Positions 13,762-53,015 of a DNA stretch of 60,812 nt are shown one piece after another. The stretch lies in contig CAMUYE010000001.1 in assembly GCA_947164825.1 (NCBI GenBank), forward strand, positions 1 to 60,812, given 5' to 3'. Within the stretch, counting starts at the first letter, position 1, and every line of letters begins with the position of its first letter. The stretch comes from an uncultured Clostridia bacterium (GTDB lineage Bacteria > Bacillota > Clostridia > Oscillospirales > Oscillospiraceae). The position numbers and the translations under genes are program-made. The notes below the pieces were generated by a model. It saw only the letters and a program-made list of their open reading frames with translations. It did not search any database and was not told the origin of the DNA.

Positions 13762-15828
13762 TCAGCACAGGCGGCTGCCCGCAGGGATGGCGTCGTCCAG
13801 GATCAGCAGGTGCAGCTGCTCGCCGCGCTCGGCGGAGAGGAGCATCCCGCAGCTGAGCTGGCCCATCATCTTCCGGGGGGCCAGGTTGGTGACGGCCACC
13901 AGGGTCTTGCCGATCAGCTCCTCGGGCTTGTAGAACTTGGCGATGCCGGAGAGGATCTGCCGGGGGGTGCCGCTGCCGTCGTCCAGCTGGAACTTCAACA
14001 GCTTCTCGGACTTCTTCACGTTCTCGCAGGCCAGGACCTTGACGACGGTCATCTCGACCTTGGTGAAGTCGTCGAAGGCGATGGGCGGCAGAGGCTCGGG
14101 CAGGGGGGCGTCCTCGTCGGAGGGAGGGCCGATGTGGGCATCGGCCCCTACGGCGGCGTCCTCCTGTGGCGCACAGTGTGCGCCGCTGTCGGCGTCCCCT
14201 GTTGCCTGTTGCCTGTTGCCTGTTGCCTCAGCAGCCTGGGCGGCCTGGAGCTTCTCGAGCTCCTCCAGCTCCTTGGCGGCGTCGATGCGGGGGAAGAGGG
14301 CGGGGCCGTTCTCCACCTTGGCGTCCCGGTAGAGGGTGCCGAAGAAGCCCAGGGAGTCCCAGTCGTACTCCGTCGCGCCGATGCGCTTCATAATTTCGGC
14401 GGAGGTGTCAGGCATGAAGGGCTGCAGCAGGCCGCCGCAGATGCGGACGGTCTCCAGCAGGTTGTAGAGCACCCGGGCCAGGCGGGGCTTCAGGGCCTCG
14501 TCTTTGGCCAGCTTCCAGGGCTCGTTCTCGTCGATATACTTGTTGGCCCGGCCGATGACCTTAAAGATCTCGCCCAGGGCGTTCTGGAAGGCGTACTTCT
14601 CCATCTGCTCCTCATAGACGTGGACCAGGTCGCAGGCCATGGTGATGAGCTCGTCGTCCTTCTCCTCGTCCTCCTGCTGCTCCAGGGGAAGCTGCCCGCC
14701 GAAATACTTGCCCACCATGGCCACGGTGCGGCTGACCAGGTTGCCCAGGTCGTTGGCCAGGTCCACGTTGATGCAGGAAATCAGGCTCTCGTTGGTGAAA
14801 TTGCCGTCGGAGCCGAAGGGGAAGGTCCGGAGCATGAAGAAGCGCAGGGCGTCCACGCCGTAGCGCTCCGCCAGCAGGTAGGGATCCACCACGTTGCCCT
14901 TGGACTTGGACATTTTATCGCCGTTAAAGTTCAGCCAGCCGTGGCCGTAGATCTTCTTCGGCAGGGGCAGACCCATGCTCATGAGGAAGGCGGGCCAGTA
15001 GATGGCGTGGAAGCGGACGATCTCCTTGCCGATGAAGTGGACGTCGGCGGGCCAGAAGCGCTTCCAGTCCTCGCCGTTGTCGTTCAGGTAGCCCAGGGGG
15101 GACAGATAGCTGAACAGGGCGTCCAGCCATACGTAGACCACGTGCTTCCCGTCGAAATCCACGGGCACGCCCCAGGTGAAGCTGGTGCGGGAGACGCAGA
15201 GGTCCTGCAGGCCGCCTTCGCAGTCGATGAAGTTGTTGACCATCTCGTTGACCCGGCTCCTGGGCTCCAGGAAGTCGGTTTCGGTGAGGAGCTTGCGCAC
15301 CTGATCCGCATACTTGCTTGCGCGGAAGAAGTAGGCTTCCTCCCGGGCGGGCTGGACCTCGCGGCCGCAGTCGGGGCACTTGCCGTCCTTGAGCTGGCTC
15401 TCGGTCCAGAAGGACTCGCAGGGAGTGCAGTACAGGCCCTCGTAGCTGCTCTTGTAGATGTCGCCCTTCTCGTACATGGTCCGGAAGACGGTCTGGACGG
15501 TCTTCAGATGGCTTTCGTCGGTGGTGCGGACGAAGCGGTCATAGGAGACGTTCATCAGCTTCCACAGATCCTTGACGCCCTTGGGGGCCTCCACGATGGA
15601 GTCCACGAACTGCTTGGGGGTCACGCCGGCCTCTTTGGCCTTGTTTTCGATCTTCTGGCCGTGCTCGTCGGTGCCGGTGAGGAAGATCACGTCGGCGCCC
15701 CGCATTCGCTTATACCGGGCCATGACGTCCGTGGCCACGGTGCAGTAGGCATGGCCGATGTGGAGCCGGCTGGAGGGATAATAGATGGGGGTCGTGATAA
15801 AGAATTTCTCTTTGCACTGGTCGCACAT
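13762..15828 (-). CDS. metG: methionine--tRNA ligase with C-terminal tRNA-binding (EMAP/Trbp111-like) domain
   Basis: Trimmed to ATG 15826-15828 (AGGAGGAAATCACT upstream). ITTPIYYPSSRLHIGHAY (HIGH), KMSKSKGN (KMSKS), zinc knuckle CPDCG. The C-terminal FTKVEMTVVKVLACENVKKSEKLLKFQLD is an OB-fold. The linker carries a repeat element (see 14126-14229). Confidence 0.95.
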   Translation of the reverse strand: MCDQCKEKFFITTPIYYPSSRLHIGHAYCTVATDVMARYKRMRGADVIFLTGTDEHGQKIENKAKEAGVTPKQFVDSIVEAPKGVKDLWKLMNVSYDRFVRTTDESHLKTVQTVFRTMYEKGDIYKSSYEGLYCTPCESFWTESQLKDGKCPDCGREVQPAREEAYFFRASKYADQVRKLLTETDFLEPRSRVNEMVNNFIDCEGGLQDLCVSRTSFTWGVPVDFDGKHVVYVWLDALFSYLSPLGYLNDNGEDWKRFWPADVHFIGKEIVRFHAIYWPAFLMSMGLPLPKKIYGHGWLNFNGDKMSKSKGNVVDPYLLAERYGVDALRFFMLRTFPFGSDGNFTNESLISCINVDLANDLGNLVSRTVAMVGKYFGGQLPLEQQEDEEKDDELITMACDLVHVYEEQMEKYAFQNALGEIFKVIGRANKYIDENEPWKLAKDEALKPRLARVLYNLLETVRICGGLLQPFMPDTSAEIMKRIGATEYDWDSLGFFGTLYRDAKVENGPALFPRIDAAKELEELEKLQAAQAAEATGNRQQATGDADSGAHCAPQEDAAVGADAHIGPPSDEDAPLPEPLPPIAFDDFTKVEMTVVKVLACENVKKSEKLLKFQLDDGSGTPRQILSGIAKFYKPEELIGKTLVAVTNLAPRKMMGQLSCGMLLSAERGEQLHLLILDDAIPAGSRLC
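14126..14229 (-). repeat. composite element inside metG: (GGCAACA)x4 heptad array + GC hairpin + GTAG-headed REP
   Basis: Minus strand: GAG GCAACAG GCAACAG GCAACAG GCAACAG GGGAC...GGCGCAC-ACT-GTGCGCC...CCGTAGGGGCCGATG-CCCA-CATCGGCCC. Translated in frame as EATGNRQQATGDADSGAHCAPQEDAAVGADAHIGPP. Confidence 0.85.
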
Positions 15829-15908
15829 AGTGATTTCCTCCTTTGTGTTCAGGGATGGCATGTATTATATCCGTTTTACAGGCAAAATGCAAGCATTTTT
15901 TGCAGGAA

Positions 15909-40520: not shown

Positions 40521-40573
40521 TGTGCTTGTTGCTTGTTCTTCCGGCGCGGCGGCCTGAGGTCAGGCCGCCCTAC
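40521..40573 (-). repeat. GTAG-headed REP with adjacent short heptad array; its GTAG supplies the stop codon of the upstream gene
   Basis: Minus strand: GTAG GGCGGCCTGA-CC-TCAGGCCGCC GCGCCGGAA GAACAAG CAACAAG CACA. The TAG of GTAG (40570-40572) is the stop of CDS 40570..40779. Confidence 0.8.
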
Positions 40574-40779: not shown

Positions 40780-40799
40780 AATAATACCATCACAACTTA

Positions 40800-42575
40800 T
40801 TATCCAACCGCGTTGGAAACGGTTTTTATGACCTTCATGGTCTCCGGGTCGGTGACGCAGACCTCGCCGGGGCTGCAGATATAGAGAATGCCGTTCAGAA
40901 GCAGGGCCCGGGCGTCGGCAGGGACGTATTCCAGCTGGAAGGAGCCGTTGATCCGGAGCTTGGAGCCGTCCCAGGCGGCCAGCAGGTATTCGTTCCCGTT
41001 TTTCCCGGCTGTGGGGAAGCCGATGAGGCCGTTGACGGGATCGGTGAAAAAGGCGCCGGGATCCGAGAGGGAGGCCGTGGGGGCGTGCCCGCCCAGGTTC
41101 AGACTGGCCGCTTTGACCGGTTCGGCGGGGTCCGTCACGTCGTAGACCGCCAGCTCCCAGTCCTCCCCTTCCCCGGGCTCGGAGATGCCGAGGACACAGC
41201 CCTCCCCGAAGGACCGCAGCAGCAGGGTCTCCCCCGGGCAGGACAGGCTCCCGCTGGGGGCGGGGCGGGCGGGATCGGCGAGGTTCGCCAGGTAGACCGC
41301 GGCAGCGTCTCCCGCCGTGATCCAGGCCAGGCCGCCCACGAAGCGGCAGGCCCCGGCGTTTTGCTCTCCGCCCAGGGCGGTCAGGGCGCCGGTCACGTTC
41401 AGATCCCCGTCCAGCAGGGACAGGGCGGCGCTCCGGTTCAGGGAATGGAGCTCGTAGTTGGTCCAGCCATGGTTTTCGTCGGTGTAGGCCGAGAAGCTGC
41501 GGCTGTCCTTCTGGGTGAAGAGGCCGAGGCCGCTGCTCAGAAGCTCCAGAGCCGAAGGATCGGACAGGGCGCCCTCCAGGACGCAGCCGCCCTCCAGCCG
41601 GAGCTGATTGTTCTCCAGCCGGAGCTTCCGCAGCTCGGTCCGGGCCGCAGTGTCATAGTCCACGACCGTGTAAGGGGCCTCCTGCCGGGGGGCGGAGGCG
41701 GTCTCGGACCAGATCGTCCGGGCCAGCCAGAGGCAGTCGCCCGACGGGCGAACGGCGTCCACGCCGTCGGTAAAGGCCAGAGCGTCGGCGATCCGACCGT
41801 CGGAGAGCCGCACCGCGGCCGCGACGGTCAGGGCCGTCCGGGCCGGTTCGGGGGCGATATAGACGTCTCCTGCGGTCAGGCGCAGCTCCTTGCCGTTCTC
41901 CCAGAGCCGGGGCAGCAGCTCGTCGCCGGTTTCGGGCAGGGCCGACAGGGTCCGCCGGGTCACCAGGCAGAGGGTCCCGTTCAGCAGACAGGCCTCCGTC
42001 AGGCTCCCCTCCACAGCGGTCTCGGCCAGCAGAAGCGGCGCGTTTTTGTCGGACAGGTCCAGCAGGATCACCCGGGTCTCCGCGGCGTTGTACAGGGCCT
42101 CGCCGTCTTCGCCGGTCTCAGAGACCGAGCACACCACGGCGGCCCGGTCCCCCTCCACGTAGAGCCGCTCGGACCAGCCGCTCCCGCCCCGGTCCACCCG
42201 GGTGTAGGAGAGGATCTCGCTGTCGGCCCCGGCGGCGGAGCAGACGATCAGGCCGTAGCGGTCCAGCATGTACAGATAGGAGCCGTCCGTCGCCGCCGTA
42301 TCCTCGTCGGGTCCGGCGTCGGCGGCCAGCCGAAGCCGGGGCGCGGCCTCGGCCTCGCCCGCCCAGTCCGGAGCCAGGGTCTGGCCCACGGCGGAGAGGG
42401 AGGCCAGGACGGCCTCGGCGTTCCCCGCGGGGATCAGGGTCCCCAGGGGCTGCCGCTCCACACTCCCCCGCTCGGCAAAGAGGGATTCCCCCGCCGATTC
42501 GGGCTTCTTGCCGCAGGCGGTAAACAGCCCGGCCAGGAGGCAGAGGGCCAACAGCAGGCAAAGTGTCTTTTTCAC
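40800..42575 (-). CDS. secreted beta-propeller-domain lipoprotein (591 aa)
   Basis: GTG start after AAAGGAGGAA, lipobox LFTAC. TDGSYLYMLDRYGLIVCSA... and repeated strand-rich blocks fit the bacterial Beta_propel family. Confidence 0.7.
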   Translation of the reverse strand: MKKTLCLLLALCLLAGLFTACGKKPESAGESLFAERGSVERQPLGTLIPAGNAEAVLASLSAVGQTLAPDWAGEAEAAPRLRLAADAGPDEDTAATDGSYLYMLDRYGLIVCSAAGADSEILSYTRVDRGGSGWSERLYVEGDRAAVVCSVSETGEDGEALYNAAETRVILLDLSDKNAPLLLAETAVEGSLTEACLLNGTLCLVTRRTLSALPETGDELLPRLWENGKELRLTAGDVYIAPEPARTALTVAAAVRLSDGRIADALAFTDGVDAVRPSGDCLWLARTIWSETASAPRQEAPYTVVDYDTAARTELRKLRLENNQLRLEGGCVLEGALSDPSALELLSSGLGLFTQKDSRSFSAYTDENHGWTNYELHSLNRSAALSLLDGDLNVTGALTALGGEQNAGACRFVGGLAWITAGDAAAVYLANLADPARPAPSGSLSCPGETLLLRSFGEGCVLGISEPGEGEDWELAVYDVTDPAEPVKAASLNLGGHAPTASLSDPGAFFTDPVNGLIGFPTAGKNGNEYLLAAWDGSKLRINGSFQLEYVPADARALLLNGILYICSPGEVCVTDPETMKVIKTVSNAVG

Positions 42576-42602
42576 GCGCTTTCCTCCTTTCGGGGGAGTT
42601 CA

Positions 42603-42711
42603 TAAGTAAGAAGTAAGAAGTAAGAAGCAGGAAGTAAGCGGACAAGCGATGCTTGTCCCTACATTATAATTCTCAAGATAATTCTCATTTCTCACTTCTC
42701 AATTCTCAATT
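42603..42711. repeat. composite element: (GAAGTAA)n array + GTAG-headed REP + (AATTCTC)n array
   Basis: TAAGTAAGAAGTAAGAAGTAAGAAGCAGGAAGTAAG C GGACAAGC-GAT-GCTTGTCC CTAC ATTATAATTCTCAAGATAATTCTCATTTCTCACTTCTCAATTCTCAATTG. Confidence 0.85.
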
Positions 42712-42751
42712 GAAAAAGCTCCCCATGCAAGACGGGAGGCCCTGCATGGGG
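42712..42751 (-). terminator. intrinsic terminator after ispH-rpsA
   Basis: Minus strand: CCCCATGCA-13 nt-TGCATGGGG followed by AGCTTTTTC. Confidence 0.75.
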
Positions 42752-42767
42752 AACGGAGAATGTACGC

Positions 42768-44837
42768 TTACTGGGCCTCGACGGTCTCAGCGACCTCTTC
42801 CACAGCCTCGGCGGCGGGCTCGGCGGTCTCGACGACGGCCTCGGCGGCCTCCTCAGCCAGAGCCTTGGCCTGCTCCTCCACGGTGGGATTCAGCAGGGCG
42901 CGGATGGACAGGGAGATGCGCTTGTTCTCGGCGTCGATGTCGATGATCTTGGCGTCCACTTCCTGACCGACGGTCAGCACGTCCTCGGGCTTGGCAATGC
43001 GGCGATCCGCGATCTGGGAGATGTGGATCAGGCCGTCCACGCCGGGCACGATCTCGGCGAAGGCGCCGAAGGTCATCATCTTCACGACCTTGACCTTGGC
43101 CACGTCGCCCACGTTGTACTTGGCGGTGAACTGGTTCCAGGGGTTCATCTCGGCGGTCTTGTAGCCCAGGGAGATCTTGCGCTTCTCGGGATCCAGGGCG
43201 ATGACGTAGACGTCGATGACGTCGCCGACCTTGACGACCTCGGCGGGGTTCTTGATCCGCCGCCAGCTCAGCTCGGACACGTGAACCATGCCGTCCACGC
43301 CGCCGATGTCCACAAAGGCGCCGTAGGAAGTCAGGGACTTCACAACGCCGGTGTACTTCTTGCCGACCTCGATCTCGGACCAGATCTTCTCCTGCGCGGC
43401 CTTGCGCTCTTCGTTGGCCACGGCGCGGATGGAGCCCACCACGCGGCCGCCGCGGCGCTCGCGGTTGACCTCAGTGATGCGGACCTTCACGGTCTGACCC
43501 TTCAGTTCCTCCAGGTTGCCGCCACGGGCCACGCCGGAAGCGGAAGCGGGGATGAACACCCGGACGCCCTTGACGTTCGCCACCAGGCCGCCCTTGTTGG
43601 TCTCGGTGATTTTGGCTTCCACGGGAGTTTTGTTGTCGGCTGCTTCCTGCAGCTCGTCCCAGACGCGCATGCCGTCCAGCTTCTTGCGGCTGAGCTGAAC
43701 AGTGCCCTCCTGGTCGTTGACGCGGACGACGAAAACCTTGATCTCGTCGCCGACGTGGAGCACGTCCTCAGGCTTGACGTTGGGGTCCGCGCTCACTTCG
43801 TCACAGGGGATGTATCCGGCGTGCTTCGTCCCAAGGTCAACCTGGACTTCGGTGGTGCCGATGGCGACGACTGTACCTGTGACCGTATCTCCTGTGTTTA
43901 GAGTTTTGATACTTGCGTCCAGCAGCGCCTCAAAGCTTTCCTCCGTCGTTGCAGCAGTATCTGTAGTTTGGACTTCCTCCACTACTGTTTTGATTTCATC
44001 CATGGTTTGATTGACCTCCTTTATTATCCACGCAGGCGTCGATGCCCCTGCGGTGATGCCGATGGTATGAATGCCTGAAAAATCGCAGTCCGCCAGCTCG
44101 GCGGCGTTGTCCACCGCGAAGACCCTTCCGCAATGGGCCCTGCAGATGGCGGCCAGCTGTTTGGTATTGGAGCTGGTCCGGTCGCCGACTACGATCATGG
44201 CGTCGCTCTGCGCCGCCAGAAGAGCGGCAGCAGTCTGCCGATTTTCAGTCGCTTCGCATATTGTATCAAAAGTTTTGCAATTTGTACAGAGCGAATTTGC
44301 AATTTCTTCAACTTTTTTCCACAAATTTTGATTGGAAGTGGTCTGCGCGGCCAGTGCCAGGGGCTGATTTCGACGTTCGGGGGCCTCTTTCAGCCAGCGT
44401 TCCAGCTCTTCGGGGCTCTCCACCACCACTGGCTCGGCGCACCAGCCGCAGATCCCCACCACCTCGGGGTGGGTCCTTGTGCCGAAAATCACAGGCCTGC
44501 GGCCCTCGGCCTCGGCCATGCGAACCAGCTTGTGAATCCGCTCCACAAAGGGACAGGTGGCGTCCACCACGGCCAGCCCCCGGGCCTCCAGGGCCTCGTA
44601 GACGTCCCGGCCCACACCGTGGGCCCGGATGATGACCGCGGCGCCTTCGGGGACTTCGGCCACATCGGAGACCTCCCGGACCCCCAGGGCCCGGAAGCGC
44701 TCCACCACGTGCCGGTTGTGGACGATGGGCCCCAGGGTCACCACGGGCCTGCCCTCAGCGGCGGTCTTCTCCACGAGCTCCACCGCCCGGCGGACGCCGA
44801 AGCAGAAGCCGGCGTTTTCCGATAATGTCACTTTCAT
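42768..44837 (-). CDS. ispH: bifunctional 4-hydroxy-3-methylbut-2-enyl diphosphate reductase / ribosomal protein S1 fusion
   Basis: Trimmed to ATG 44835-44837. The N-terminus MKVTLSENAGFCFGVRRAVE...GPIVHN is IspH/LytB and the C-terminal half has four S1 OB repeats (e.g. GTVVAIGTTEVQVDLG, GVVKSLTSYGAFVDIG). I recall this fusion as common in Clostridia. Confidence 0.9.
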   Translation of the reverse strand: MKVTLSENAGFCFGVRRAVELVEKTAAEGRPVVTLGPIVHNRHVVERFRALGVREVSDVAEVPEGAAVIIRAHGVGRDVYEALEARGLAVVDATCPFVERIHKLVRMAEAEGRRPVIFGTRTHPEVVGICGWCAEPVVVESPEELERWLKEAPERRNQPLALAAQTTSNQNLWKKVEEIANSLCTNCKTFDTICEATENRQTAAALLAAQSDAMIVVGDRTSSNTKQLAAICRAHCGRVFAVDNAAELADCDFSGIHTIGITAGASTPAWIIKEVNQTMDEIKTVVEEVQTTDTAATTEESFEALLDASIKTLNTGDTVTGTVVAIGTTEVQVDLGTKHAGYIPCDEVSADPNVKPEDVLHVGDEIKVFVVRVNDQEGTVQLSRKKLDGMRVWDELQEAADNKTPVEAKITETNKGGLVANVKGVRVFIPASASGVARGGNLEELKGQTVKVRITEVNRERRGGRVVGSIRAVANEERKAAQEKIWSEIEVGKKYTGVVKSLTSYGAFVDIGGVDGMVHVSELSWRRIKNPAEVVKVGDVIDVYVIALDPEKRKISLGYKTAEMNPWNQFTAKYNVGDVAKVKVVKMMTFGAFAEIVPGVDGLIHISQIADRRIAKPEDVLTVGQEVDAKIIDIDAENKRISLSIRALLNPTVEEQAKALAEEAAEAVVETAEPAAEAVEEVAETVEAQ

Positions 44838-44865
44838 TCTCTGTCGGTTCCTCTCCCGGATTCGG

Positions 44866-44954
44866 ATGAAGTATCGTTTTATTCTGCGAATAAAACGATG
44901 AATGATGAATAATGTAAGATATGGCGAAGCCATACTTCATATGCGAAGCATACT
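44866..44954. repeat. AT-rich composite palindromic element between plsC and ispH
   Basis: ATGAAGTAT CGTTTTATTC-TGC-GAATAAAACG ATGAATGATGAATAATGTAAGAT ATGGC-GAA-GCCAT ACTTCAT ATGCGAAGCATACTTCA. The outer arms ATGAAGTAT and ATACTTCAT are inverted. Confidence 0.7.
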
Positions 44955-45611
44955 TCACGCCTTCCCCAAGGCATAGATCTTCTTCATCAGCTCCGCGGTC
45001 TTCTCTTCCAGCTCCGCGGCGTCGGGGCGGCTGCAGCTCCAATCCGGGGTATAGGCCTCGCCCATGATAACCTTGACGGGCCGGAAGGGCTTGCGGCCAT
45101 GGGTGATATAGACCGGCACCACAGGCACGCCGGTCCGCTGGGCCAGCATCACCGCGCCGGATTTGGGCTCGGATTTTTTGCCGTTTTTGACGCGGGTGCC
45201 CTCGGGGAAGATCAGCAGCTTCTCCCCGTTCTTCAGCACCGACAGCGACTTCTTGATGGCGGGCAGATCCACATTGTCCCGGTCCACCGGGAAAGCCCGG
45301 AAGGCTGCCAGGAAGCGGCCCAGAACCGGTTTTTCCATGACGGATTTCTTGGCCATGGTCCAGGGCGGGAGCCGGGTCCGCATCAGCAGGAAGACCCAGA
45401 GCGGATCTGCAAAGCCGGAATGGTTGCCGCAGATTACGCAGGGACCCTCCGGAAGATTTTCCCGGCCCCGGAAGGTCGGCCAATGGTACAGGCAGAGGAA
45501 GAAGCCGATCAGATCTCGGAAAAAGCGATACAAATGCTTGACGGCGAAACCCCTGCCGGGTTCGGCCTTCTTTTTGGCCGGGCGGGTCGTCAGTTCAGTC
45601 TGGCTTGCCAT
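44955..45611 (-). CDS. plsC: 1-acyl-sn-glycerol-3-phosphate acyltransferase
   Basis: Trimmed to ATG 45609-45611 (TAATG overlap with the cmk stop). NHSGFADP (HX4D) and FPEGTR motifs. Confidence 0.85.
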   Translation of the reverse strand: MASQTELTTRPAKKKAEPGRGFAVKHLYRFFRDLIGFFLCLYHWPTFRGRENLPEGPCVICGNHSGFADPLWVFLLMRTRLPPWTMAKKSVMEKPVLGRFLAAFRAFPVDRDNVDLPAIKKSLSVLKNGEKLLIFPEGTRVKNGKKSEPKSGAVMLAQRTGVPVVPVYITHGRKPFRPVKVIMGEAYTPDWSCSRPDAAELEEKTAELMKKIYALGKA

Positions 45612-46291
45612 TACGGCTGCACCTTCTTCCGAATAATGGCCTTCATCTCGGCCACCACCTGGTCGATGGTCAGATAGGAGCAGTCCAGAAGCTCCGCGTC
45701 GTCGGCGCACTTCAGGGGGGCGATCTTCCGGTTCATGTCCTGCTCGTCGCGCTTCACCACGTCGATGTAGACGTCCTCATATTTGACGTCCTGGCCCTTG
45801 GCGAGCAGCTCCTTCCAGCGGCGCTCGGCCCGGACCTCGGCGGAGGCGGTGAGGTAGACCTTGACAGTGGCGTCCGGCAGCACCACGGTGCCGATGTCCC
45901 GTCCGTCCATCACCACGTTGTGGGTCCGGGCCAGCTCCCGCTGCATATCCAGCAGATAGGCCCGGACGCAGGGCTGGGCCGAGACGCCCGAGGCCATCAT
46001 GGACATCTCCGGCGTGCGGATCAAATCCGTCACGTCCTGGCCGTTGAGGATCATGTGCTGGATCCCGTCATCCCGATACTCGATCTGGATGTTCACGTCG
46101 TCGATGCAGCGCTCGATGCCGTCCTTGTCCTTCGGGCCGATGCCCATGAGGCTCATGTGATAGCCCACGGTGCGGTAGATGGCCCCGGTGTCCACATAGA
46201 GCCAGCCCAGCTCGGCGGCCACCCGCTTGGCGATGGTGCTCTTCCCCGCCCCGGCGGGCCCGTCAATCGCCACAGATACGTATTTGTCCAT
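45611..46291 (-). CDS. cmk: cytidylate kinase
   Basis: Trimmed to ATG 46289-46291 (AGGAGG upstream). VAIDGPAGAGKSTIAKRVAAELGWLYVDTGAIYR. The 25 upstream ORF codons are heptad-array read-through. Confidence 0.93.
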   Translation of the reverse strand: MDKYVSVAIDGPAGAGKSTIAKRVAAELGWLYVDTGAIYRTVGYHMSLMGIGPKDKDGIERCIDDVNIQIEYRDDGIQHMILNGQDVTDLIRTPEMSMMASGVSAQPCVRAYLLDMQRELARTHNVVMDGRDIGTVVLPDATVKVYLTASAEVRAERRWKELLAKGQDVKYEDVYIDVVKRDEQDMNRKIAPLKCADDAELLDCSYLTIDQVVAEMKAIIRKKVQP

Positions 46292-46305
46292 ATGTACAAC
46301 CTCCT

Positions 46306-46375
46306 GTGAAGTGAGAAGTGAGAATTGAGAAGTGAGAAGTAAGATGTAAGATGTAGGGACAAGCATTGCTTGTCC
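46306..46375 (+). repeat. heptad array (GTGAGAA/TTGAGAA/GTAAGAT) + GTAG-headed REP
   Basis: GTGAAGTGAGAAGTGAGAATTGAGAAGTGAGAAGTAAGATGTAAGAT GTAG GGACAAGC-ATT-GCTTGTCC. The same REP stem occurs at 42640-42662. Confidence 0.85.
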
Positions 46376-46385
46376 GCAGCTTGAC

Positions 46386-46898
46386 CTAAGGCAATTCCTC
46401 GATATATACGATCACGTTGCGTCCGAAGAACTCTGTATAGCCGATTTTCAGATGCTGGCCGTCACCGGTGATCACGCCGCCGAGGGATCTGGCGTTGTGA
46501 TAGCCGGATTGACTCTCAAAATCGCTGTATGCAAAACAGACGCCGTTGATCGTAAAGGATTCCCTGGCGTGTCCCGTTGCCGGCATGGGGTCAAACTCCG
46601 TTACGTATCCCTCCACCGTCTGATACTCGCCCCGTTGATAGGCTCCGACTGTGGCCTGATACATAGCGGCGTGGTAGAAGATAAGTATCGCTGTGAAAAG
46701 CGCAAGCTGGATCGCAAGACCTCCGCTGAAGATCATTCCGATCTGAATTCCGGTCTTCGAGACGCGGTCTGCAGCGGAATCCCGTTTCTTTTTTACAAAG
46801 ACGAGGAAGGCGATCAGGCTGGCGAAAAAGAGAAGCGGTACAACCAGAAGCGCAAAATCAAGCTCAAAGGCCGCCTCGTATAATACACGCGGTTCCAT
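46386..46898 (-). CDS. hypothetical 2-TM membrane protein with C-terminal soluble domain (170 aa), locally low GC
   Basis: Trimmed to ATG 46896-46898 (AAAGGAGAG upstream). MEPRVLYEAAFELDFALLVVPLLFFASLIAFLVFV.... Confidence 0.55.
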   Translation of the reverse strand: MEPRVLYEAAFELDFALLVVPLLFFASLIAFLVFVKKKRDSAADRVSKTGIQIGMIFSGGLAIQLALFTAILIFYHAAMYQATVGAYQRGEYQTVEGYVTEFDPMPATGHARESFTINGVCFAYSDFESQSGYHNARSLGGVITGDGQHLKIGYTEFFGRNVIVYIEELP

Positions 46899-46940
46899 GA
46901 AAAGCTCTCCTTTCGGTTCGGCGCAAAAGTCAGCAGACAT

Positions 46941-47001
46941 GCGGGCAGATTGCCCGCGCTACATTGTCTCCTGTCACTTGTCACCTGTCACCTGTCACTT
47001 G
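46941..47001 (-). repeat. GTAG-headed REP + (GTGACAG/GTGACAA) heptad array; array overlaps the 3' end of the flavoprotein gene
   Basis: Plus strand: GCGGGCAGATTGCCCGCGCTAC ATTGTCTCCTGTCACTTGTCACCTGTCACCTGTCACTTG. On the minus strand the array encodes ...SDR-TGA of CDS 46988..48361. Confidence 0.85.
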
Positions 47002-48361
47002 CGGCAGCGTTGGCCGCGGCGTACGCCGTCGCCCACGCGATCTGCAGGTTGAAGCCGCCGGTGTAGGCGTCCACGTCGATGACTTCCCCGGCGAAGTAGA
47101 GGCCGGGGACCAGCTTGCTCTCCATGGTCTTCGGGTCGATCTCCTTCACCGACACGCCGCCGGAGGTGACGATAGCCTCCTCCACCGGGCGCAGGCCGGA
47201 GATTTTGACGGTAAACTGCTTCGTCAGTTCCAGAAGGCTGCGGCGCTGTTCCTTGGTGACGGAATTCACCTTCGTGTCGCCGGGGATGCCGGAGCGCTCC
47301 ACGATCACCGGGATCATGGTCTTGGGATAGAGCCCCGAGAGGGCGTTCTCGAAGCTGCGGTTTTTGGCCGCGGCGAAGTCCCGCAGGATCCGGGCGTCCA
47401 GGGTGGCCTCGTCCAGGGCGGGCTTCAGGTCTATCGAGATTATGTAAACCTTGTCCTGCTCCATGTGGGCCGAGGCCGAGAGGATCACCGGCCCGGAGAG
47501 GCCGAAGTGGGTAAAGAGGAGTTCGCCGAATTCCTCGTAGACGGGTTTTCCGACGGCTCTCGCCCGGGTCGTCCCCTCATCCGTCGGCTGCGCCGACACC
47601 TTCCCCCCAGGGGGAAGGCTTTCATACAGCCGCAGGTTGACGTTTTTCAGGGCCAGGCCCTGCATGCGGGCGCACCAGGGGCCGTCCTCCACCAGGGGCA
47701 CCAGGGAGCCCACGGGGGGAACGATGGTATGGCCCAGGGCCTTTGCCATCCGGTAGCCGTCGCCGGTGGAGCCGGTGGCGGGGTAGGATTTGCCGCCGGT
47801 GGCCAGGATCACGGCGGGGGCATGGAAGTCGCCCCGGTCCGTGCGGACGCCGGTGACAACGGGGGACGGGGGATACGGATTGCCACGACCAGTCTGCGGA
47901 CTGGTCTCGCAATGACAGGATCGGGACGTTTCTGCCGCAGGAGGCGCGGTCAGGATCTCCTTGGCTCTTGCGCGGCGGAGCTCGACCCCGGCGTAACCCA
48001 GGGCGGTTTTCAGGGCGTCCACCACGGAGGCGGACTTGTCGGACACCGGGAAGACCCGGTTCCCCCGCTCGGTCTTGGTCTCGCAGCCGTGGGACTCGAA
48101 AAATGTGATCGCGTCGGCGGGGGTGAAGCCCGAGAGGACGGAATAGAGGAAGCGGGGGTTCCGGGGGACGTTCTTCAGGACCTCCTGCCAGGAGCAGTCG
48201 TTGGTCAGGTTGCAGCGTCCCTTGCCGGTGATGTAGAGCTTTTTGCCCAGCCGCTCGTTGGGCTCCAGCAGCAGGACCTTTGCCCCGGCATAGCCCGCCT
48301 GGATCGCGGCGAACATCCCCGCGGCGCCGCCGCCCACTACGATAACGTCGTATTCATTCAT
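46988..48361 (-). CDS. HI0933/YhiN-family NAD(P)/FAD-dependent oxidoreductase with two in-frame palindromic insertions
   Basis: Trimmed to ATG 48359-48361. MNEYDVIVVGGGAAGMFAA (GxGxxG)...GLYFAGEVIDVDAYTGGFNLQIAWATAYAAA. It is 457 aa, versus roughly 400-420 aa as I recall for this family. Confidence 0.85.
   Translation of the reverse strand: MNEYDVIVVGGGAAGMFAAIQAGYAGAKVLLLEPNERLGKKLYITGKGRCNLTNDCSWQEVLKNVPRNPRFLYSVLSGFTPADAITFFESHGCETKTERGNRVFPVSDKSASVVDALKTALGYAGVELRRARAKEILTAPPAAETSRSCHCETSPQTGRGNPYPPSPVVTGVRTDRGDFHAPAVILATGGKSYPATGSTGDGYRMAKALGHTIVPPVGSLVPLVEDGPWCARMQGLALKNVNLRLYESLPPGGKVSAQPTDEGTTRARAVGKPVYEEFGELLFTHFGLSGPVILSASAHMEQDKVYIISIDLKPALDEATLDARILRDFAAAKNRSFENALSGLYPKTMIPVIVERSGIPGDTKVNSVTKEQRRSLLELTKQFTVKISGLRPVEEAIVTSGGVSVKEIDPKTMESKLVPGLYFAGEVIDVDAYTGGFNLQIAWATAYAAANAAASDR
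47575..47622 (+). repeat. double-hairpin element (family of 4078-4134) inside the flavoprotein CDS
   Basis: CCTCATCCG GTCGGC-TGC-GCCGAC ACC TTCCCC-CCAG-GGGGAA GGCTTT. Translated on the minus strand as ...SLPPGGKVSAQPTDEG.... Confidence 0.7.
47877..47916. repeat. nested palindrome inside the flavoprotein CDS
   Basis: GGATTGC CAC GACCAGTC-TGCG-GACTGGTC TC GCAATGAC. The stem-loop CCAGTNTGCGNACTGG also occurs at 4090-4107. Translated as ...SCHCETSPQTGRGNP.... Confidence 0.65.
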
Positions 48362-48375
48362 AAAGGTTTTCCTCT

Positions 48376-48477
48376 GAATTGAGAATTGAGAGTTGAGAAT
48401 TGAGAATTTTCGGAGTTTCGCAAATTGCAATTTGCGAAACACATCCATTTTCAATTCTCAATTCTCAGTTCTCAATT
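48376..48477. repeat. composite element: (GAATTGA)n array + GGAG + perfect 26-nt palindrome + inverted (ATTCTCA)n array
   Basis: GAATTGAGAATTGAGAGTTGAGAATTGAGAATTTT CGGAG TTTCGCAAATTGCAATTTGCGAAA CACATCC ATTTTCAATTCTCAATTCTCAGTTCTCAATTG. The right array encodes QLRTEN-TGA of rluB. Confidence 0.88.
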
Positions 48478-49171
48478 GCCGCAGTTCCGCCTCAGTCAGA
48501 TATCGCCATTGCCCCGATTTCAGGTCGCCCAGGGAGATCGGGCCTTCGGCGATGCGCTGGAGGCGGGTGGTCTTCAGGCCCGCGGCCTCGGCCATCCGCC
48601 GGATCTGGCGGTTCCGTCCCTCGTGGATGGTAATCTCCAGCAATGCCGTTCCGTCACGCTGCCACATCAATCGCAGCTCCGGCGCTTGGATGCTTCGGCC
48701 ATCCAGGACGATGGGGCGGCGCAGGAGCGCGAGGGCGCCTTCGTGCCAGCCGGAGACCCAGAGACGGTAGGTTTTGCGGACCTCCCCGGCGGGGTGGGTC
48801 AGGCGCTGGGCCAGGGCTCCGTCGTTGGTCATCAGCAGCAAGCCCTCGGAGAACTGATCCAGCCTGCCCACGGGGTAGAGCCGCCCCAGCGCCGGGGGCA
48901 GGAGCTCCGCAACCGTTTGGCGGCCCTTCTCGTCGGAGAGGGTGGTGACGACGCCCCGGGGCTTGTAGAGCAGCACGGTGACCGTCTCGGCGGGAACGGC
49001 GGGCAGGGGCTTGCCGTCGATCAAAACCAGGTCGGTCTCCGGATCCGCCGTATCGCCAAGGCGGGCAAGGCCTCCGTTCACGGTGACCTTGCCCTGGACA
49101 ATCCATTCCTCCGCACGCCGCCGGGAACAGAGCCCCGCAGCGGAGATTATCTTCTGAACACGTTCTTTCAT
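48458..49171 (-). CDS. rluB: pseudouridine synthase, RsuA/RluB family (S4 domain + catalytic domain)
   Basis: MKERVQKIISAAGLCSRRRAEEWIVQGKVTVNG (S4)...YPVGRLDQFSEGLLLMTNDG (catalytic Asp motif). Confidence 0.9.
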   Translation of the reverse strand: MKERVQKIISAAGLCSRRRAEEWIVQGKVTVNGGLARLGDTADPETDLVLIDGKPLPAVPAETVTVLLYKPRGVVTTLSDEKGRQTVAELLPPALGRLYPVGRLDQFSEGLLLMTNDGALAQRLTHPAGEVRKTYRLWVSGWHEGALALLRRPIVLDGRSIQAPELRLMWQRDGTALLEITIHEGRNRQIRRMAEAAGLKTTRLQRIAEGPISLGDLKSGQWRYLTEAELRQLRTEN

Positions 49172-49192
49172 TTCTTTTTGTTCTTGCGATAT

Positions 49193-49294
49193 GAAGTTGA
49201 AAGTTGAGAATTAAAAATTGAAAGTGATCGGAGTTTTGCAGATTGCAATCTGCAAAACACATTCATTTTCAACTTTCAACTATCAATTTTCAAC
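49193..49294. repeat. composite element homologous to 48376-48477
   Basis: GAAGTTGAAAGTTGAGAATTAAAAATTGAAAGTG ATCGGAG TTTTGCAGATTGCAATCTGCAAAA CACATTC ATTTTCAACTTTCAACTATCAATTTTCAAC. The right array supplies the dacB stop (TGA, 49290-49292). Confidence 0.88.
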
Positions 49295-50294
49295 TGGCGG
49301 GTGGCCAGGAAACGGGCACCTCGGCGACGCATTTGCCGTTCAGGTACACTTTGACCGTACCGGCGTGGGGAAAATCCGGGACGTAGACCAGGCGGGGCTC
49401 CTCTCCGGGAGCGAGGGAGAGCGTCAGATCCGCCTGCGCGATCAGGGTCAGGTCACCGACCCGCATGATCGGCTGGCCTTTGACCGCCGTCTGCTCCTGC
49501 CGGAATTGGGCGAAGCCCCAGTCCAGCAGGGCCATGTGGTCCTGCCAGTCGGCGGGATCGTTGACCGTGACGCAGATCAGGGTCCGGCCCTCCCGCTCCG
49601 CCGCGCTGACCAGGAGCCGCCCCGCCGCCCGGGTATACCCGGTCTTCACCCCGATGCAGCCGGGGCAGCGCCAGAGGAGCTTATTGTGGTTGGTCAGCAT
49701 CCGATCCCCGGACACGACAGCCGTCTTCGCGGCGGCGATGCGCCGGAACTCCGGATTCTGCAGAGCCGCCGCCGTCAGCAGGGCCAGATCCCGGGCGGAG
49801 CCGTAGTTGCCCTCCTGATCCAGGCCGTGCGGGTTGGCGTAATGGGTGTTTTGCAGGCCGAGCCTGCGGGCTGCTTCGTTCATGCGATCCACGAAGGCCG
49901 TCTCGCTGCCCGCCGTGTCAATGGCCAGGGCCAGGGCGGCGTCGTTGCCGGAATGGAGCATGGTGCCGAGAAGCAGCTCCTCCCGGGTCAGGGTCTCCCC
50001 TTCCTGCAGGTACAGAGACGAGCCCTCCACCCCCACGGCCTCCGGGGGGACGGTCACGGGACGGTCCAGATCCCCGGCCTCACAGGCCAGCCAGGCTGTC
50101 ATGATCTTTGTGGTGGAGGCGATCAGCCCGGGATCGTCCGGGTGCCGGGACCAGAGCAGCGCTCCGGTGTCGGCGTCCATCAGCACGCCGCGTCCTGCGG
50201 AGACGGAAGGCGCGGCCTCAGCGGCGGCCGCGGGCAGGCAGAGACTGCCGACAGCGAAAAGGAGTGCCGTCAGCAGAAAGAAAAGTCGTTTCAT
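49290..50294 (-). CDS. dacB: D-alanyl-D-alanine carboxypeptidase (peptidase S11, PBP5-type)
   Basis: Signal peptide and SxxK active site (ASTTKIMT), SGN (HSGND), KTG (VKTGYT). The dacB assignment rests on its position next to scpA/scpB and rluB, as I recall for Bacillus. Confidence 0.8.
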   Translation of the reverse strand: MKRLFFLLTALLFAVGSLCLPAAAAEAAPSVSAGRGVLMDADTGALLWSRHPDDPGLIASTTKIMTAWLACEAGDLDRPVTVPPEAVGVEGSSLYLQEGETLTREELLLGTMLHSGNDAALALAIDTAGSETAFVDRMNEAARRLGLQNTHYANPHGLDQEGNYGSARDLALLTAAALQNPEFRRIAAAKTAVVSGDRMLTNHNKLLWRCPGCIGVKTGYTRAAGRLLVSAAEREGRTLICVTVNDPADWQDHMALLDWGFAQFRQEQTAVKGQPIMRVGDLTLIAQADLTLSLAPGEEPRLVYVPDFPHAGTVKVYLNGKCVAEVPVSWPPAS

Positions 50295-50379
50295 CCTTCA
50301 TCACCCGTTCCAGTTTCCCCGAAACGGGTCGAACTATGCGTTATTTTTCAAATTCGAAATTTGTCAAACGCATTCGCAG

Positions 50380-50405
50380 GGGCCGATGTGGGCATCGGCC
50401 CCTAC
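50380..50405 (-). repeat. GTAG-headed REP, identical to the unit inside metG
   Basis: GGGCCGATG-TGGG-CATCGGCCCCTAC, flanked by AT-rich palindromes (CAAATT-CGA-AATTTG at 50349-50363). Confidence 0.85.
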
Positions 50406-50429
50406 GGCTCCGCAATCCGAATTCGCAGT

Positions 50430-50822
50430 TCAGGCCTCGGTCTTGGGCTTGAAGCCATCCAGGAAGTCGGCCAGCTTGTCGATCAGCTCGGGGGCCTGCT
50501 CCAGGAGACGGTCCGCGGTGCTGGAGGCGGGCTCCGCCACGGGCAGCATCCGCACGGAATCGCCCTTGATGATGAGGAAGGCCACGGGATCGATGTTCAC
50601 GCCGCCGCCGATGCCGCCGCCGAAGGGATCCTTCTTGGCCGCCAGCGCGTTCTTGGTGGCAAAGTCGCTGCCGCCGCCGCCCACGCCGATACGGACCTTG
50701 GAAATCGGAACGACCGTCACGCCGCCCACGTCCACCGGCGCGCCGATGATGGTGTTGACGTCCACCATCTTCTGCATCTTCTCCATCGTGGAGGCCAGCA
50801 TTTCGGAGATGTTGTTATTCAT
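50430..50822 (-). CDS. ytfJ: sporulation protein YtfJ (GerW family)
   Basis: MNNNISEMLASTMEKMQKMVDVNTIIGAPVDVGGVTVVPISKVRIGVGGGGSDF.... Confidence 0.88.
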   Translation of the reverse strand: MNNNISEMLASTMEKMQKMVDVNTIIGAPVDVGGVTVVPISKVRIGVGGGGSDFATKNALAAKKDPFGGGIGGGVNIDPVAFLIIKGDSVRMLPVAEPASSTADRLLEQAPELIDKLADFLDGFKPKTEA

Positions 50823-50864
50823 ATCTGATACCCAACCTTTCTGGTATTTTTCTTCGGTATGATG

Positions 50865-51581
50865 TTACGCAACCGCGTTCTTGCCGGTTTCTTTCTCTTT
50901 GTCTTCTTTTTCTTTGTCTTTTCCGCCGGCGAGTTTTTGACGGATGAAAAGCGCCAGGGCTTTGCCCGCAAATTTCAGGAGCAGGAGCACGACGCCGCCG
51001 ATCCGGAGCCGGACCCGCAGTTCCGCCTCCAGGTCGGTCTTGGAGGCTGTGAAGTCGGGATACACCGCGATCTTCTTTTCCTTGATCCGGAACGCTTGCT
51101 CCAGGATCGGCATGGCGATGCCGATGGCCTCCCAGGCCTTGCCGATGGTCTCGGCGGTTTTGGCCGGGTCGCCTCCCGCCAGGGCGGCGCGGACCCGGAG
51201 CCGGGTGACCGTAAGCTTCCGGTGGAAGAACTGGCCGACAAATTTCGCGCCCAGCTTCGCCCAGGGGATGATCTCTCTGACCTTCTCCGGCAGGGGCTTC
51301 TTGGGCTTTTCCGGCTCTTCGGGCTTGGCGATCAGGCTTTGCGCCTGTTTCTTTTTCTTCTTTTTCTCCTTGGCCGCGGCCTTCTTGGCGTCCTTCTTTG
51401 CTTTCTTCGCTTCGGCCTTTTCCCGCTTCTTCCGGGACATCGGCTTCTTCGGCAGGATGCCGATCCGGATGAAGAGGATCGTCAGCTTCAATTCGATCTC
51501 GTCATGGTATCGGAAAATGACGCCCACGGGGATGCATCCGATCAGGAAGATGACGGCGGCAATGATCAGGAATACCCTCAT
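50865..51581 (-). CDS. DUF2953 (YtfI-like) sporulation-associated membrane protein with Lys-rich linker
   Basis: An N-terminal TM, ILFIRIGILPKK, a long KKxKK linker and a C-terminal TM. Its position upstream of ytfJ matches my recollection of Bacillus. Confidence 0.7.
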   Translation of the reverse strand: MRVFLIIAAVIFLIGCIPVGVIFRYHDEIELKLTILFIRIGILPKKPMSRKKREKAEAKKAKKDAKKAAAKEKKKKKKQAQSLIAKPEEPEKPKKPLPEKVREIIPWAKLGAKFVGQFFHRKLTVTRLRVRAALAGGDPAKTAETIGKAWEAIGIAMPILEQAFRIKEKKIAVYPDFTASKTDLEAELRVRLRIGGVVLLLLKFAGKALALFIRQKLAGGKDKEKEDKEKETGKNAVA

Positions 51582-52234
51582 TCAGCCTTCGCCTCCTCTG
51601 CCGGTTGATCGGAGGCTTCTGCCTCGGGCGGGCGGCCAATGGCCGCCCCTACGGCGCGGTCCCCTGTTGCCTGTTGCCCGCTGCCTGTTGCCTCGCCGCC
51701 GTCCTCGGCGGCGGTGCTGAACTGCACCTTCTCCATCTCCGGCAGCTCGTCCAGGGACTCCAGACCGAAGGTGCGGAGGAAGTCGGGGGTGGTGCGGTAG
51801 AGGATGGGGCGGCCCGGGGCTTCCAGGCGGCCGTCTTCCTCGATGAGCTTCTTGTTCAGCAGAGCCGAAACGGAATACGCGCTGTCCACCCCCCGGAGCT
51901 TCTCCACGAAGGCCTTGGTGGTGGGCTGGTAGTAGGCGATAATGGTGAGGGTCTCCAGCTGGGAGGCCGAGAGCTTCGGGGGCTTGCGGGTCTCCAGGGC
52001 ACGGGTGACCCAGGGGGCCAGGTCGTTCTGGGAGCACATCTGCCAGCTGTCCTCCAGCCGGAGGATGCGGATGCCCCGGCGCTCGAAGGCGTAGAGGTCC
52101 ATGAGCTCCTTCATGACGGCCCGGATCTCGTCGGGGTCGGTCTCGGTGACGAAGCTGAGCCGCTCCGTCTCCACCGGCTCCCCGGCGGCGAACAATACTG
52201 CCTCGCAGATGCGGGCAAGCTCCTTATGATCCAT
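51578..52234 (-). CDS. scpB: segregation and condensation protein B with repeat-encoded C-terminal tail
   Basis: ICEAVLFAAGEPVETERLS...LSASQLETLTIIAYYQPTTKAFVEKLRGVDSAYSVSALLNKKLIEE (two winged helices). The tail GGEATGSGQQATGDRAVGAAIGRPPE is encoded by 51630-51694. Confidence 0.9.
   Translation of the reverse strand: MDHKELARICEAVLFAAGEPVETERLSFVTETDPDEIRAVMKELMDLYAFERRGIRILRLEDSWQMCSQNDLAPWVTRALETRKPPKLSASQLETLTIIAYYQPTTKAFVEKLRGVDSAYSVSALLNKKLIEEDGRLEAPGRPILYRTTPDFLRTFGLESLDELPEMEKVQFSTAAEDGGEATGSGQQATGDRAVGAAIGRPPEAEASDQPAEEAKAE
51630..51694 (-). repeat. composite element inside scpB: (GGCAACA)-type heptad array + GTAG-headed REP
   Basis: Minus strand: GAG GCAACAG GCAGCGG GCAACAG GCAACAG GGGAC CGCG CCGTAG GGGCGGCC-ATT-GGCCGCCC. 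Same module order and same reading frame as the metG copy. Confidence 0.85.
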
Positions 52235-53015
52235 TCGCTTCCTCCTTTCCCGGCACCCGCAGCAGCCGGACGGCGGTCTCTCCGCCCTCCTCGCTCAGCT
52301 CCACGGCGTTGGTCCGGCACAGCTCCAGCACGGCCAGGAAGGTCGCCACGATCTCAGAGCGGCTGCGGCAGCCCCGGAAGAGGCGGCGCAGGGCGCTGAC
52401 GCCCCGGAGAACCAGCTTTTTCAGCAGCTCCGCGGTCTTTTTCGTGACGGGGTAGGGCTCCCGGCCCACGATGCCCTCGAAGCTGGCCCGGGGCGGCGGG
52501 AGCTGGGCCTTGCTGCGCTCGGAAATGCTCTCGAAGGCCCGCAGCAGGTCCGCGGGCTCGTGGCGGTAGCGGTAGGTCCTGTCCCGCTCAAAGGGCTCCG
52601 GGGCCTTGGGAAATAGGCCCAGGCCCAGCTCGTTCCGCCCCTCCAGGAAGGCCGCGGCGGTCCGGACCCGGTCGATGGCCTCCTGGCGCTGACGCTCCTG
52701 GAGAGACTGGATCAGCTGTTCCATCTCGGACAGGGCCTCGGCCTGCTCGGCGGCGGAGAGCAGCATCTTGGTCTTGATGAGCATGAGATGAGAGGCCATG
52801 GCGATAAACTCGCTGGCGATCTCCATGTCCATGCGCTTCATCTCTTCCATCCAGGCCAGGTACTGCTCCAGGATCGCCGTGATCGACACGTCCTGGATCT
52901 CAATTTTGTTTTTGCTCAGCAGGAGCAGGATCAGGTCCAGGGGGCCGTCGAAATCCCCGGCGGTCTCGTCATGGGCCTTCATCACACCTGTGAGGTGGTA
53001 ATTCGGTTCGTTCAT
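52224..53015 (-). CDS. scpA: segregation and condensation protein A
   Basis: The last 263 codons of ORF 52224..53729, from ATG 53013-53015. FDGPLDLILLLLSKNKIEIQDVSITAILEQYL.... The upstream part of the ORF overlaps the M50 gene out of frame and is rejected. Confidence 0.9.
   Translation of the reverse strand: MNEPNYHLTGVMKAHDETAGDFDGPLDLILLLLSKNKIEIQDVSITAILEQYLAWMEEMKRMDMEIASEFIAMASHLMLIKTKMLLSAAEQAEALSEMEQLIQSLQERQRQEAIDRVRTAAAFLEGRNELGLGLFPKAPEPFERDRTYRYRHEPADLLRAFESISERSKAQLPPPRASFEGIVGREPYPVTKKTAELLKKLVLRGVSALRRLFRGCRSRSEIVATFLAVLELCRTNAVELSEEGGETAVRLLRVPGKEEANGS

Follow-up and report, generated by a model that had tools for sequence, protein, structure and literature searches.

An in-frame heptad array and GTAG-tagged hairpin in the ScpB tail of an Oscillospiraceae bacterium: probably a translated copy of mosaic repeat DNA

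The stretch of DNA analyzed here (hereafter, the window) comprises 60,812 nucleotides (nt) from an uncultured Clostridia bacterium of the Oscillospiraceae (GenBank assembly GCA_947164825.1, contig CAMUYE010000001.1, positions 1 to 60,812), and its scpB gene contains a repetitive element made up of a heptanucleotide array and a hairpin headed by GTAG. The scpB open reading frame (ORF; 51578..52234, minus strand) encodes 218 amino acids (aa) and matches Pfam PF04079 over residues 9 to 166 (E = 6e-52). It belongs to the gene order M50 peptidase–ScpA–ScpB–DUF2953–YtfJ–DacB, which is common to the window and its relatives; its stop codon and the start codon of DUF2953, the next gene downstream, overlap as ATGA, an arrangement that relatives also keep. 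The window as a whole has a GC content of 62% and contains many period-7 arrays and about 17 GTAG-headed hairpins.

The ScpB insert spans 87 nt (51608-51694, minus strand; residues E181 to D209) and, read from 51694 to 51608, consists of GAG, four heptads, GGGGAC, CGCGCC, the hairpin GTAG-GGGCGGCC-ATT-GGCCGCCC, and GCCCGAGGCAGAAGCCTCCGAT. The part at 51694..51630, translated in the ORF frame, gives EATGSGQQATGDRAVGAAIGRP; the insert is assumed to be translated. The hairpin has the form of a repetitive extragenic palindrome (REP), i.e., a short GC-rich palindrome with an 8-bp GC stem and a 3-nt loop (51630-51648), and its two arms are perfectly complementary and fold into a predicted hairpin. 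This REP is identical to the commonest 23-mer variant among the loci that we surveyed (17 copies), and in one of these loci (L063) the REP and its 3′ tail GCCCGAGGCAGAAGCCTCCGAT are duplicated together. An earlier note on this DNA had placed the array and hairpin at the C-terminal tail of ScpB and described the hairpin stem as self-complementary. The stem and the location hold, but the element is 22 nt longer than first described, because GCCCGAGGCAGAAGCCTCCGA belongs to the REP unit, and it does not end the protein: nine residues (QPAEEAKAE) stand after it, making the insert internal to the tail. In an AlphaFold2 model built from a 55-sequence alignment, residues 165 to 218 are almost wholly below a predicted local distance difference test (pLDDT) score of 50 and lack secondary structure, such that the insert lies within a predicted disordered region.

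A second copy of the composite occurs in the MetG ORF (13762..15861, minus strand), where the sequence at 14230..14125 reads EATGNRQQATGD...AAVGADAHIGP. In this gene, (GGCAACA)x4-GGGGAC is followed by two REP hairpins, and the array occupies a linker: by Pfam limits, the anticodon-binding domain ends at residue 529 and the tRNA-binding domain starts at residue 604. The ScpB and MetG copies are translated in the same phase (GGG-GAC and GTA-GGG), and the 18-mer CAACAGGCAACAGGGGAC is found at just two places in the window, one in each gene, versus an expectation of 0.04 from shuffled sequences. As such, the module order and frame reported earlier as shared by the two composites are confirmed for the ScpB sequence then quoted (51694..51630). 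The rimM gene (36587-37213), which the earlier note grouped with these two, has a different arrangement: the part encoding its N-terminal domain contains two inverted REPs, in frame and 78 nt long in all (GTAGGGGGCGGCGTCCTCGACGCCCC and GGGCCGTCGGGGACGCCGACCCCTAC on either side of a spacer; translated VGGGVLDAPNLSISDTRGPSGTPTPT), and because this doublet lacks a heptad array, rimM does not provide a third example of the array-plus-REP composite. Another inverted doublet (Table 1) is situated near the 5′ end of an AlaX-like ORF (895-2310, minus strand), probably upstream of the true start.

Table 1. Repeat modules and related features in the window
Feature	Gene or context	Position	Strand	Basis or remarks
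GAG ahead of array	scpB	51692-51694	-	Direct reading
Heptad array GGCAACA GGCAGCG GGCAACA GGCAACA	scpB	51665..51692	-	Tandem Repeats Finder (period 7) and direct reading
Array terminator GGGGAC, read Gly-Asp	scpB	51659..51664	-	Direct reading; same terminator ends arrays of several heptad units
GTAG-tagged REP hairpin GTAG-GGGCGGCC-ATT-GGCCGCCC, read VGAAIGR	scpB	51630..51652	-	Predicted by folding
REP 3′ tail GCCCGAGGCAGAAGCCTCCGAT, read PPEAEASD	scpB	51608..51629	-	Conserved after this REP in intergenic clusters and other ScpB tails
Array (GGCAACA)x4 plus GGGGAC	metG	14194..14227	-	Same site in MetG orthologs L012 and L018
Second REP hairpin CGGCGCAC ACT GTGCGCC	metG	14168..14189	-	GTAG head decayed to ACAG
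REP of another family GTAGGGGCCGATGCCCACATCGGCCCT, read VGADAHIGP	metG	14125..14151	-	
9-nt direct repeat GAGGACGCC	metG	14163-14155 and 14115-14107	-	Flanks the 48-nt block
Intergenic copy of the VGADAHIGP REP	Intergenic	about 50380-50405		
Inverted REP doublet, 78 nt	rimM	36953-37030	-	
Inverted REP doublet	Near 5′ end of AlaX-like ORF	2078-2154		
Inverted pairs of AT-rich heptad arrays	Spacers between co-directional genes	48375-48477, 49194-49295, 39392-39551, 42600-42712, 46304-46375, 37368-37397, 37958-37999		

Comparisons with relatives indicate that the segments in both ScpB and MetG are insertions. ScpB relatives that are 84 to 93% identical in the conserved domain are 183 to 203 aa long and lack module peptides. 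ScpB homologs overall span 183 to 304 aa, with tails past the conserved FGLESL motif of 22 to 143 aa. Recognizable module peptides (among them EATGNRQQATGD, VGADAHIGP, VGAAIGRPPEAEAS, GSGIKDQGSGD, SPVTSHQSPGD, and EASGDASLR) appear in 42 of 104 ScpB tails and in none of the other 62, and the median tail measures 64 aa with modules versus 38.5 aa without them; thus, the comparison of tail lengths proposed in the earlier note finds short tails in the relatives that lack the insert. Likewise, the MetG linker is 83 aa long in the window and 44 to 49 aa in uninserted relatives (53 aa in the closest uninserted relative). Other host proteins, e.g., MutL, DprA, LplA, TruB, and Maf, also hold the element in linkers or loops. 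In a side observation on ScpB, the homolog P0065, from an 884-bp contig, has 52 differences from the ScpB of the window between residues 13 and 138, yet from residue 139 to the end, insert included, it is identical to it except for T190A, a pattern that points to recombination or to a chimeric assembly.

The downstream modules of MetG differ even among close relatives. Two orthologs (L012 and L018), with 86 to 91% DNA identity, have the array at the same site but differ in the modules that come after it, with indels of 45 and 48 nt: they retain GTAGCGGCGCACA(A/G)TGTGCGCCA where the MetG of the window has the decayed ACAG hairpin, and they are missing the 48-nt block that contains the VGADAHIGP REP. 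In the window, this block is flanked by a 9-nt direct repeat that could be a target duplication or microhomology used in copying. Relative to a 99%-identical relative, three of five differences in MetG fall inside the 40-aa insert (Fisher P = 0.008), a clustering of substitutions that suggests relaxed constraint on the insert.

The composite is part of a larger repeat system. Scanning one genome per species for the 18-mer recovered 60 loci, about 37 of them from rumen or gut Oscillospiraceae/Clostridia metagenome-assembled genomes (MAGs), and a metagenome scan added about 20 further loci of Oscillospiraceae/Clostridia type; in total, the array with GGGGAC is present in about 60 additional loci of rumen and gut Oscillospiraceae/Clostridia genomes and metagenomes. 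About 425 kb of surveyed sequence yielded roughly 268 period-7 array calls, some overlapping, with many different heptad units, GGGAATC among them. The 74 unique G-rich arrays that end in GGGGAY favor four units (50 arrays, compared with 16 of five units and 6 of three), and 40 of the 74 have a REP in the same orientation downstream within 150 nt (18 within 30 nt). Among hairpins with an 8-bp stem and a 3-nt loop, GTAG is the 5′ 4-mer in 151 cases, versus at most 39 for any other 4-mer. The surveyed loci contain 152 such 23-mer REP hairpins in 67 variants; about 200 REP family members were located, 138 of which lie between called genes, and they are arranged both in inverted doublets and in tandem clusters that repeat about every 58 to 59 bp. 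Modules recur in the order array, GGGGAC, an optional GGGGGAYGCGGATTGCC...CAATGACA module, and GTAG REP, a mosaic organization resembling that of bacterial interspersed mosaic elements (BIMEs). Arrays and REPs occur jointly or are both absent: across the 6 to 7 kb of the syntenic ScpA-ScpB-DUF2953-YtfJ-DacB region, the window and loci L062 and L063 each have three to six REPs and three to five arrays, whereas L061 and L064 have none of either.

Inside genes, the arrays are strongly biased in frame and strand. We called a copy intragenic on the basis of a spanning ORF and the signal from GC content at third codon positions (GC3), with start codons checked and host genes verified by Pfam. A 46-aa composite peptide used as a query against a 5.8-billion-protein collection returned eight candidates, with two weak matches; the frame survey is based on DNA scans. 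Across public genomes and metagenomes, the array resides inside 17 Pfam-verified gene families, and in 15 of these it is read on the coding strand in the frame GGG-GAC (binomial P against 1/5 = 3e-9; P = 6e-8 without the two seed genes, ScpB and MetG). The 15 families are MetG, ScpB, LplA, Maf, RluB-type, MiaB-like, CitXG, MutL, DprA, DUF4093, Orn/Lys/Arg decarboxylase, GH53, DUF2344, GIDA-like, and TruB; the two families in frame +2, in which the array reads QQATGNRQQGT, are both of phage type (a terminase, in L001/L099, and DUF1064, in L072). No robust case of an opposite-strand array was found inside genes; two apparent cases (L015 and L059) are actually upstream of the real start codon. 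Intergenic copies, in contrast, have no such preference relative to neighboring genes (26 in the same direction, 20 opposite). Length is biased as well: intragenic module spacings (123, 69, 123, 51, 81, and 81 nt) are all multiples of three, whereas only 7 of 22 intergenic spacings are. REPs taken alone are less strict within genes (about 14 read as GTA-GGG, 4 as xGT-AGx, and about 7 in opposite orientation), with each REP family having a preferred hydrophilic reading. The second REP of the RimM doublet is one example of an off-frame or opposite reading; others are EASGDASLR, found in ScpB tails, GSGAQCAP, from an orthologous MetG, and two peptides from the linker of another MetG, ACRDEHCSS and DKQCLSLQ. 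The frame bias anticipated in the earlier note is thus pronounced for arrays, but it is not strict for REPs.

This bias cannot be attributed to open frames being scarce. It had been proposed that no frame family other than the observed one would leave an ORF open and that the element might be biased toward an ORF-compatible design. Six-frame translation refutes the former: five of six frames are open across the composite in both ScpB and MetG, the sixth being shut solely by the TAG within the GTAG head. Because a period of 7 cycles through the codon phases, the heptad array encodes one and the same repeat of seven residues whichever frame of a strand is read; a heptad with a stop triplet would close all three frames together, and GGCAACA is open on both strands. 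Openness of this degree is ordinary at the 70 to 72% GC of the composites (shuffle P = 0.46 and 0.31), and, therefore, stop avoidance provides no evidence of an ORF-compatible design; the spacing data instead favor selection after insertion. What distinguishes the frame in use is the peptide: it has a net charge of −3 and −5 and 0 to 1 Cys in the ScpB and MetG composites, whereas the other open frames contain 9 to 12 Arg (+9 to +12) or 4 to 5 Cys with positive hydropathy. The used frame is the only one yielding an acidic, Cys-free, low-Arg peptide.

The repeat nature of the element, its insertion and location, and its frame, strand, and length biases within genes are all apparent in these comparisons. 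We consider it likely that the ScpB segment is a translated copy of noncoding, multicopy, mosaic repeat DNA whose copies in genes are filtered by selection after insertion, and we infer that this selection is the cause of the intragenic bias. The module system, which fills intergenic spacers and forms tandem clusters in one clade of rumen Oscillospiraceae, would have invaded that clade, and copies that landed or expanded in coding DNA would have been kept where extra residues are tolerated (disordered tails, interdomain linkers, and loops) and almost only on the strand and in the frame that give an acidic, hydrophilic peptide with a high content of Gly, Ala, Thr, and Gln. The other open frames, with Arg-rich (+9 to +12) or hydrophobic Cys/Leu/Pro-rich products, would be purged by selection, as would indels that are not multiples of three. 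The intragenic filter would, in this way, act on location, length, and peptide chemistry. Of the two proposals in the earlier note, filtering by selection is the better supported. The 29 extra residues of ScpB most likely do nothing in their own right and are simply carried along as a passenger. The element would presumably be moved by a tyrosine transposase like the REP-associated tyrosine transposases (RAYTs), acting on the GTAG hairpin, and/or by recombination and slippage between copies, which the direct repeats and module-by-module turnover also allow.

Several points weigh against this explanation. A phmmer search with Escherichia coli RayT and a scan for HUH/Y1 motifs found no RayT/IS200-like ORF among six-frame ORFs of the window and loci (roughly 0.7 Mb, a small part of each genome). 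Four perfect array units are conserved across MetG orthologs that are 86 to 91% identical, and this could reflect constraint at the DNA or RNA level or homogenization between copies rather than pure neutrality. REPs, unlike arrays, are found in other frames and orientations, and, hence, the filter is not absolute. The survey itself relied on heuristic gene calling (open frame plus GC3) and on an exact 18-mer search, which is blind to decayed copies and pseudogenes, and because many loci come from few related MAGs, gene families were counted instead of copies.

The first alternative is that the composite is kept in scpB as a nucleic acid, the peptide being a by-product. It could serve as an RNA hairpin or array that affects mRNA stability, ribosome pausing, or coupling to DUF2953, or, alternatively, as a DNA sequence bound by a recombination protein or by a nucleoid or gyrase-like protein, along the lines suggested for BIMEs, which in E. 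coli are bound by integration host factor or DNA gyrase or act on transcripts. The intact ScpB REP stem, identical to the commonest variant, is consistent with this possibility, as are the position of the element about 30 to 110 nt upstream of a translationally coupled start codon, the fact that species with 86 to 91% identity in the flanking coding DNA all keep arrays of exactly four perfect units, and the recurrence of four-unit heptad arrays in distant phyla (PMC4692102; PMC2700814). However, close relatives with the same operon lack all modules while retaining the ATGA overlap, module content at a single site turns over freely among relatives, and the strand bias is confined to genes and absent from intergenic copies. 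Moreover, the region as a whole folds with an unremarkable energy (z = −1.0), and a scan of the window against Rfam at gathering thresholds returned no family match (at E ≤ 1, the interval 37300-52300 gave only chance matches of long hairpins to microRNA-precursor families). On balance, we regard a nucleic acid role as unlikely.

The bias might instead arise from the insertion process, through a codon-phased target motif, recombinational copying of an in-frame cassette, or an orientation tied to replication. GAG or CAG usually stands ahead of an array, GACGAG is a frequent module ending, and 9-nt direct repeats flank the 48-nt block of MetG, which makes homology-guided copying between existing copies plausible; in addition, the ScpB tail, the MetG linker, and a loop of Maf have been hit or remodeled in several species. 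Against biased insertion, intergenic copies have no orientation preference relative to neighboring genes, and tandem units come in multiples of three inside genes but not between them. The two frame +2 cases and the off-frame REPs show that other phases do arise, and the host genes are unrelated, with different flanks just outside the modules. Biased insertion is thus, in our estimation, an improbable source of the pattern.

There is still less reason to think that the peptide has been domesticated, either as a Gly/Ala/Thr/Gln/Asp-rich acidic flexible spacer or interaction motif in ScpB or as a linker in MetG. Although it resembles the acidic disordered tails and linkers native to these proteins and the insert is kept in several related lineages, ScpB tails are anywhere between 22 and 143 aa long, the modules in them are unrelated, 62 of 104 relatives have no modules at all, substitutions concentrate in the insert, and the same peptide is present in at least 15 functionally unrelated protein families, rendering domestication very unlikely. 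That the array is a phase-variation switch, in which the gain or loss of a 7-nt unit shifts the frame and alters the ScpB tail or truncates the tRNA-binding domain of MetG, is scarcely credible. In its favor, 7 is not a multiple of 3, and slippage would alter only the sequence after the array, since all three frames through it are open. Against it, four units form a short and relatively stable tract, every ortholog and near-identical variant examined (a small sample) has four units and an intact downstream frame, and housekeeping genes are unlikely targets.

Two sets of side observations concern repeats other than the composite itself. AT-rich heptad arrays in the window (GAATTGA, AAGTTGA, AAGTAAG, and similar, of four to five units) form inverted pairs (Table 1), with either a GTAG hairpin or a conserved palindrome, e.g., GTTTCGCAAATTGCAATTTGCGAAAC, enclosed between them. 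They fill the spacers that separate co-directional genes and match no Rfam family; in the syntenic locus L064, these genes directly adjoin or overlap one another, without an AT-rich array element. Entire multi-module units have also been amplified in tandem: within an ORF of L048 (81-bp units, three times), within a single 920-aa ORF of L052, which contains four VGAAIGRPPEEPA REP units and two arrays, and, outside called genes, in L059 (113- to 127-bp units, three times) and L005 (45-bp units, three times).

The hairpin component has counterparts in several known systems. In REPIN/RAYT systems, inverted REP doublets are mobilized by a domesticated IS200-like tyrosine transposase. GTAG-headed hairpins and inverted doublets, such as that in RimM, also occur here; however, the ScpB and MetG REPs are single and attached to an array, and no RAYT homolog was found in the sequence searched. 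Our element is like the GTAG-tagged REPs and BIMEs described by Di Nocera et al. (2013, PMC3733652) in consisting of multicopy, mostly intergenic, GC-rich palindromes of 20 to 30 bp with a GTAG head, arranged in tandem clusters and inverted doublets, a minority of which are in frame within genes and encode 20 to 80 residues in linkers or termini. That study cataloged in-frame intragenic copies encoding 20 to 82 residues, in a survey that included neither Firmicutes nor heptad arrays. The present system differs in that its hosts are Firmicutes (rumen Oscillospiraceae), its REPs are regularly preceded by a four-unit heptad array and GGGGAC, and the strand and frame bias of its intragenic copies, which that study did not report, is quantified. 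The Rickettsia palindromic elements (RPEs) are the classic example of selfish palindromic DNA inserted in frame (Ogata et al. 2000, 2002, as summarized in PMC10969869), and they similarly occur in frame in many unrelated housekeeping genes (the array here in 17 Pfam-verified families) at positions compatible with fold and function. RPEs are AT-rich, 100 to 150 bp long, devoid of a heptad array or GTAG head, and native to an alphaproteobacterial intracellular parasite. The inserts of the ScpB/MetG type, in contrast, are mosaics of short GC-rich modules in free-living gut anaerobes, such that the resemblance is in behavior only.

The array component, too, has known relatives. The short tandemly repeated repetitive (STRR) heptamers of cyanobacteria are tandem elements with a 7-nt repeat. 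Heptanucleotide arrays of GGGNATC that prefer four units are found in Xanthomonas and Nostoc (Rehm et al. 2015, PMC4692102), and the “four tandem heptanucleotide” family of Geobacter metallireducens has 49 copies between and within genes (PMC2700814). Like all of these elements, our arrays are multicopy, have 7-nt tandem units with four preferred, and are mostly intergenic with some copies in genes; they differ in being coupled to REP hairpins and other modules and in having had their in-frame use measured. A G-quadruplex, the structure invoked to explain GGGNATC, is not applicable to GGCAACA, whose units carry only GG and no G3 tracts; the AT-rich arrays are devoid of G tracts altogether. We also detected (GGCAACA)n-GGGGAC in eight cyanobacterial loci and in six from soil and other bacteria, often as a foldback (array, GGGGAC, short loop, GTCCCC, and inverted array); the heptad module is therefore not confined to the Oscillospiraceae. 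More speculatively, and we give this little credence, the four-heptad array with GGGGAC may be a distinct functional module, with an unknown recognizer or a templated origin, that is common to Oscillospiraceae, cyanobacteria, Geobacter, and Xanthomonas and that, in Oscillospiraceae, has become coupled to GTAG hairpins as a new mobile element, co-evolved to be translatable. If so, translatability would let this array-hairpin element live inside essential genes as well as between genes.

We found nothing relevant in the literature on this element in Clostridia or Oscillospiraceae. In-frame REPs and four-heptad arrays were each known already, but their regular coupling, their abundance in rumen Oscillospiraceae, and the measured filter on strand, frame, and length appear to be new. 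These findings extend the biology of GTAG REPs to Firmicutes of the gut and rumen and bring REP hairpins together with four-unit heptanucleotide arrays, both of them poorly understood classes of repeat, in one modular system. The counts show how selection shapes selfish repeat DNA that lands in genes: an open frame is nearly free at this GC content, and the filter appears to act on peptide chemistry and indel length. For the Oscillospiraceae themselves, such inserts lengthen and disarrange tails and linkers in the conserved proteins encoded by MAGs, thereby affecting annotation, orthology calls, and the use of protein tails as strain markers.

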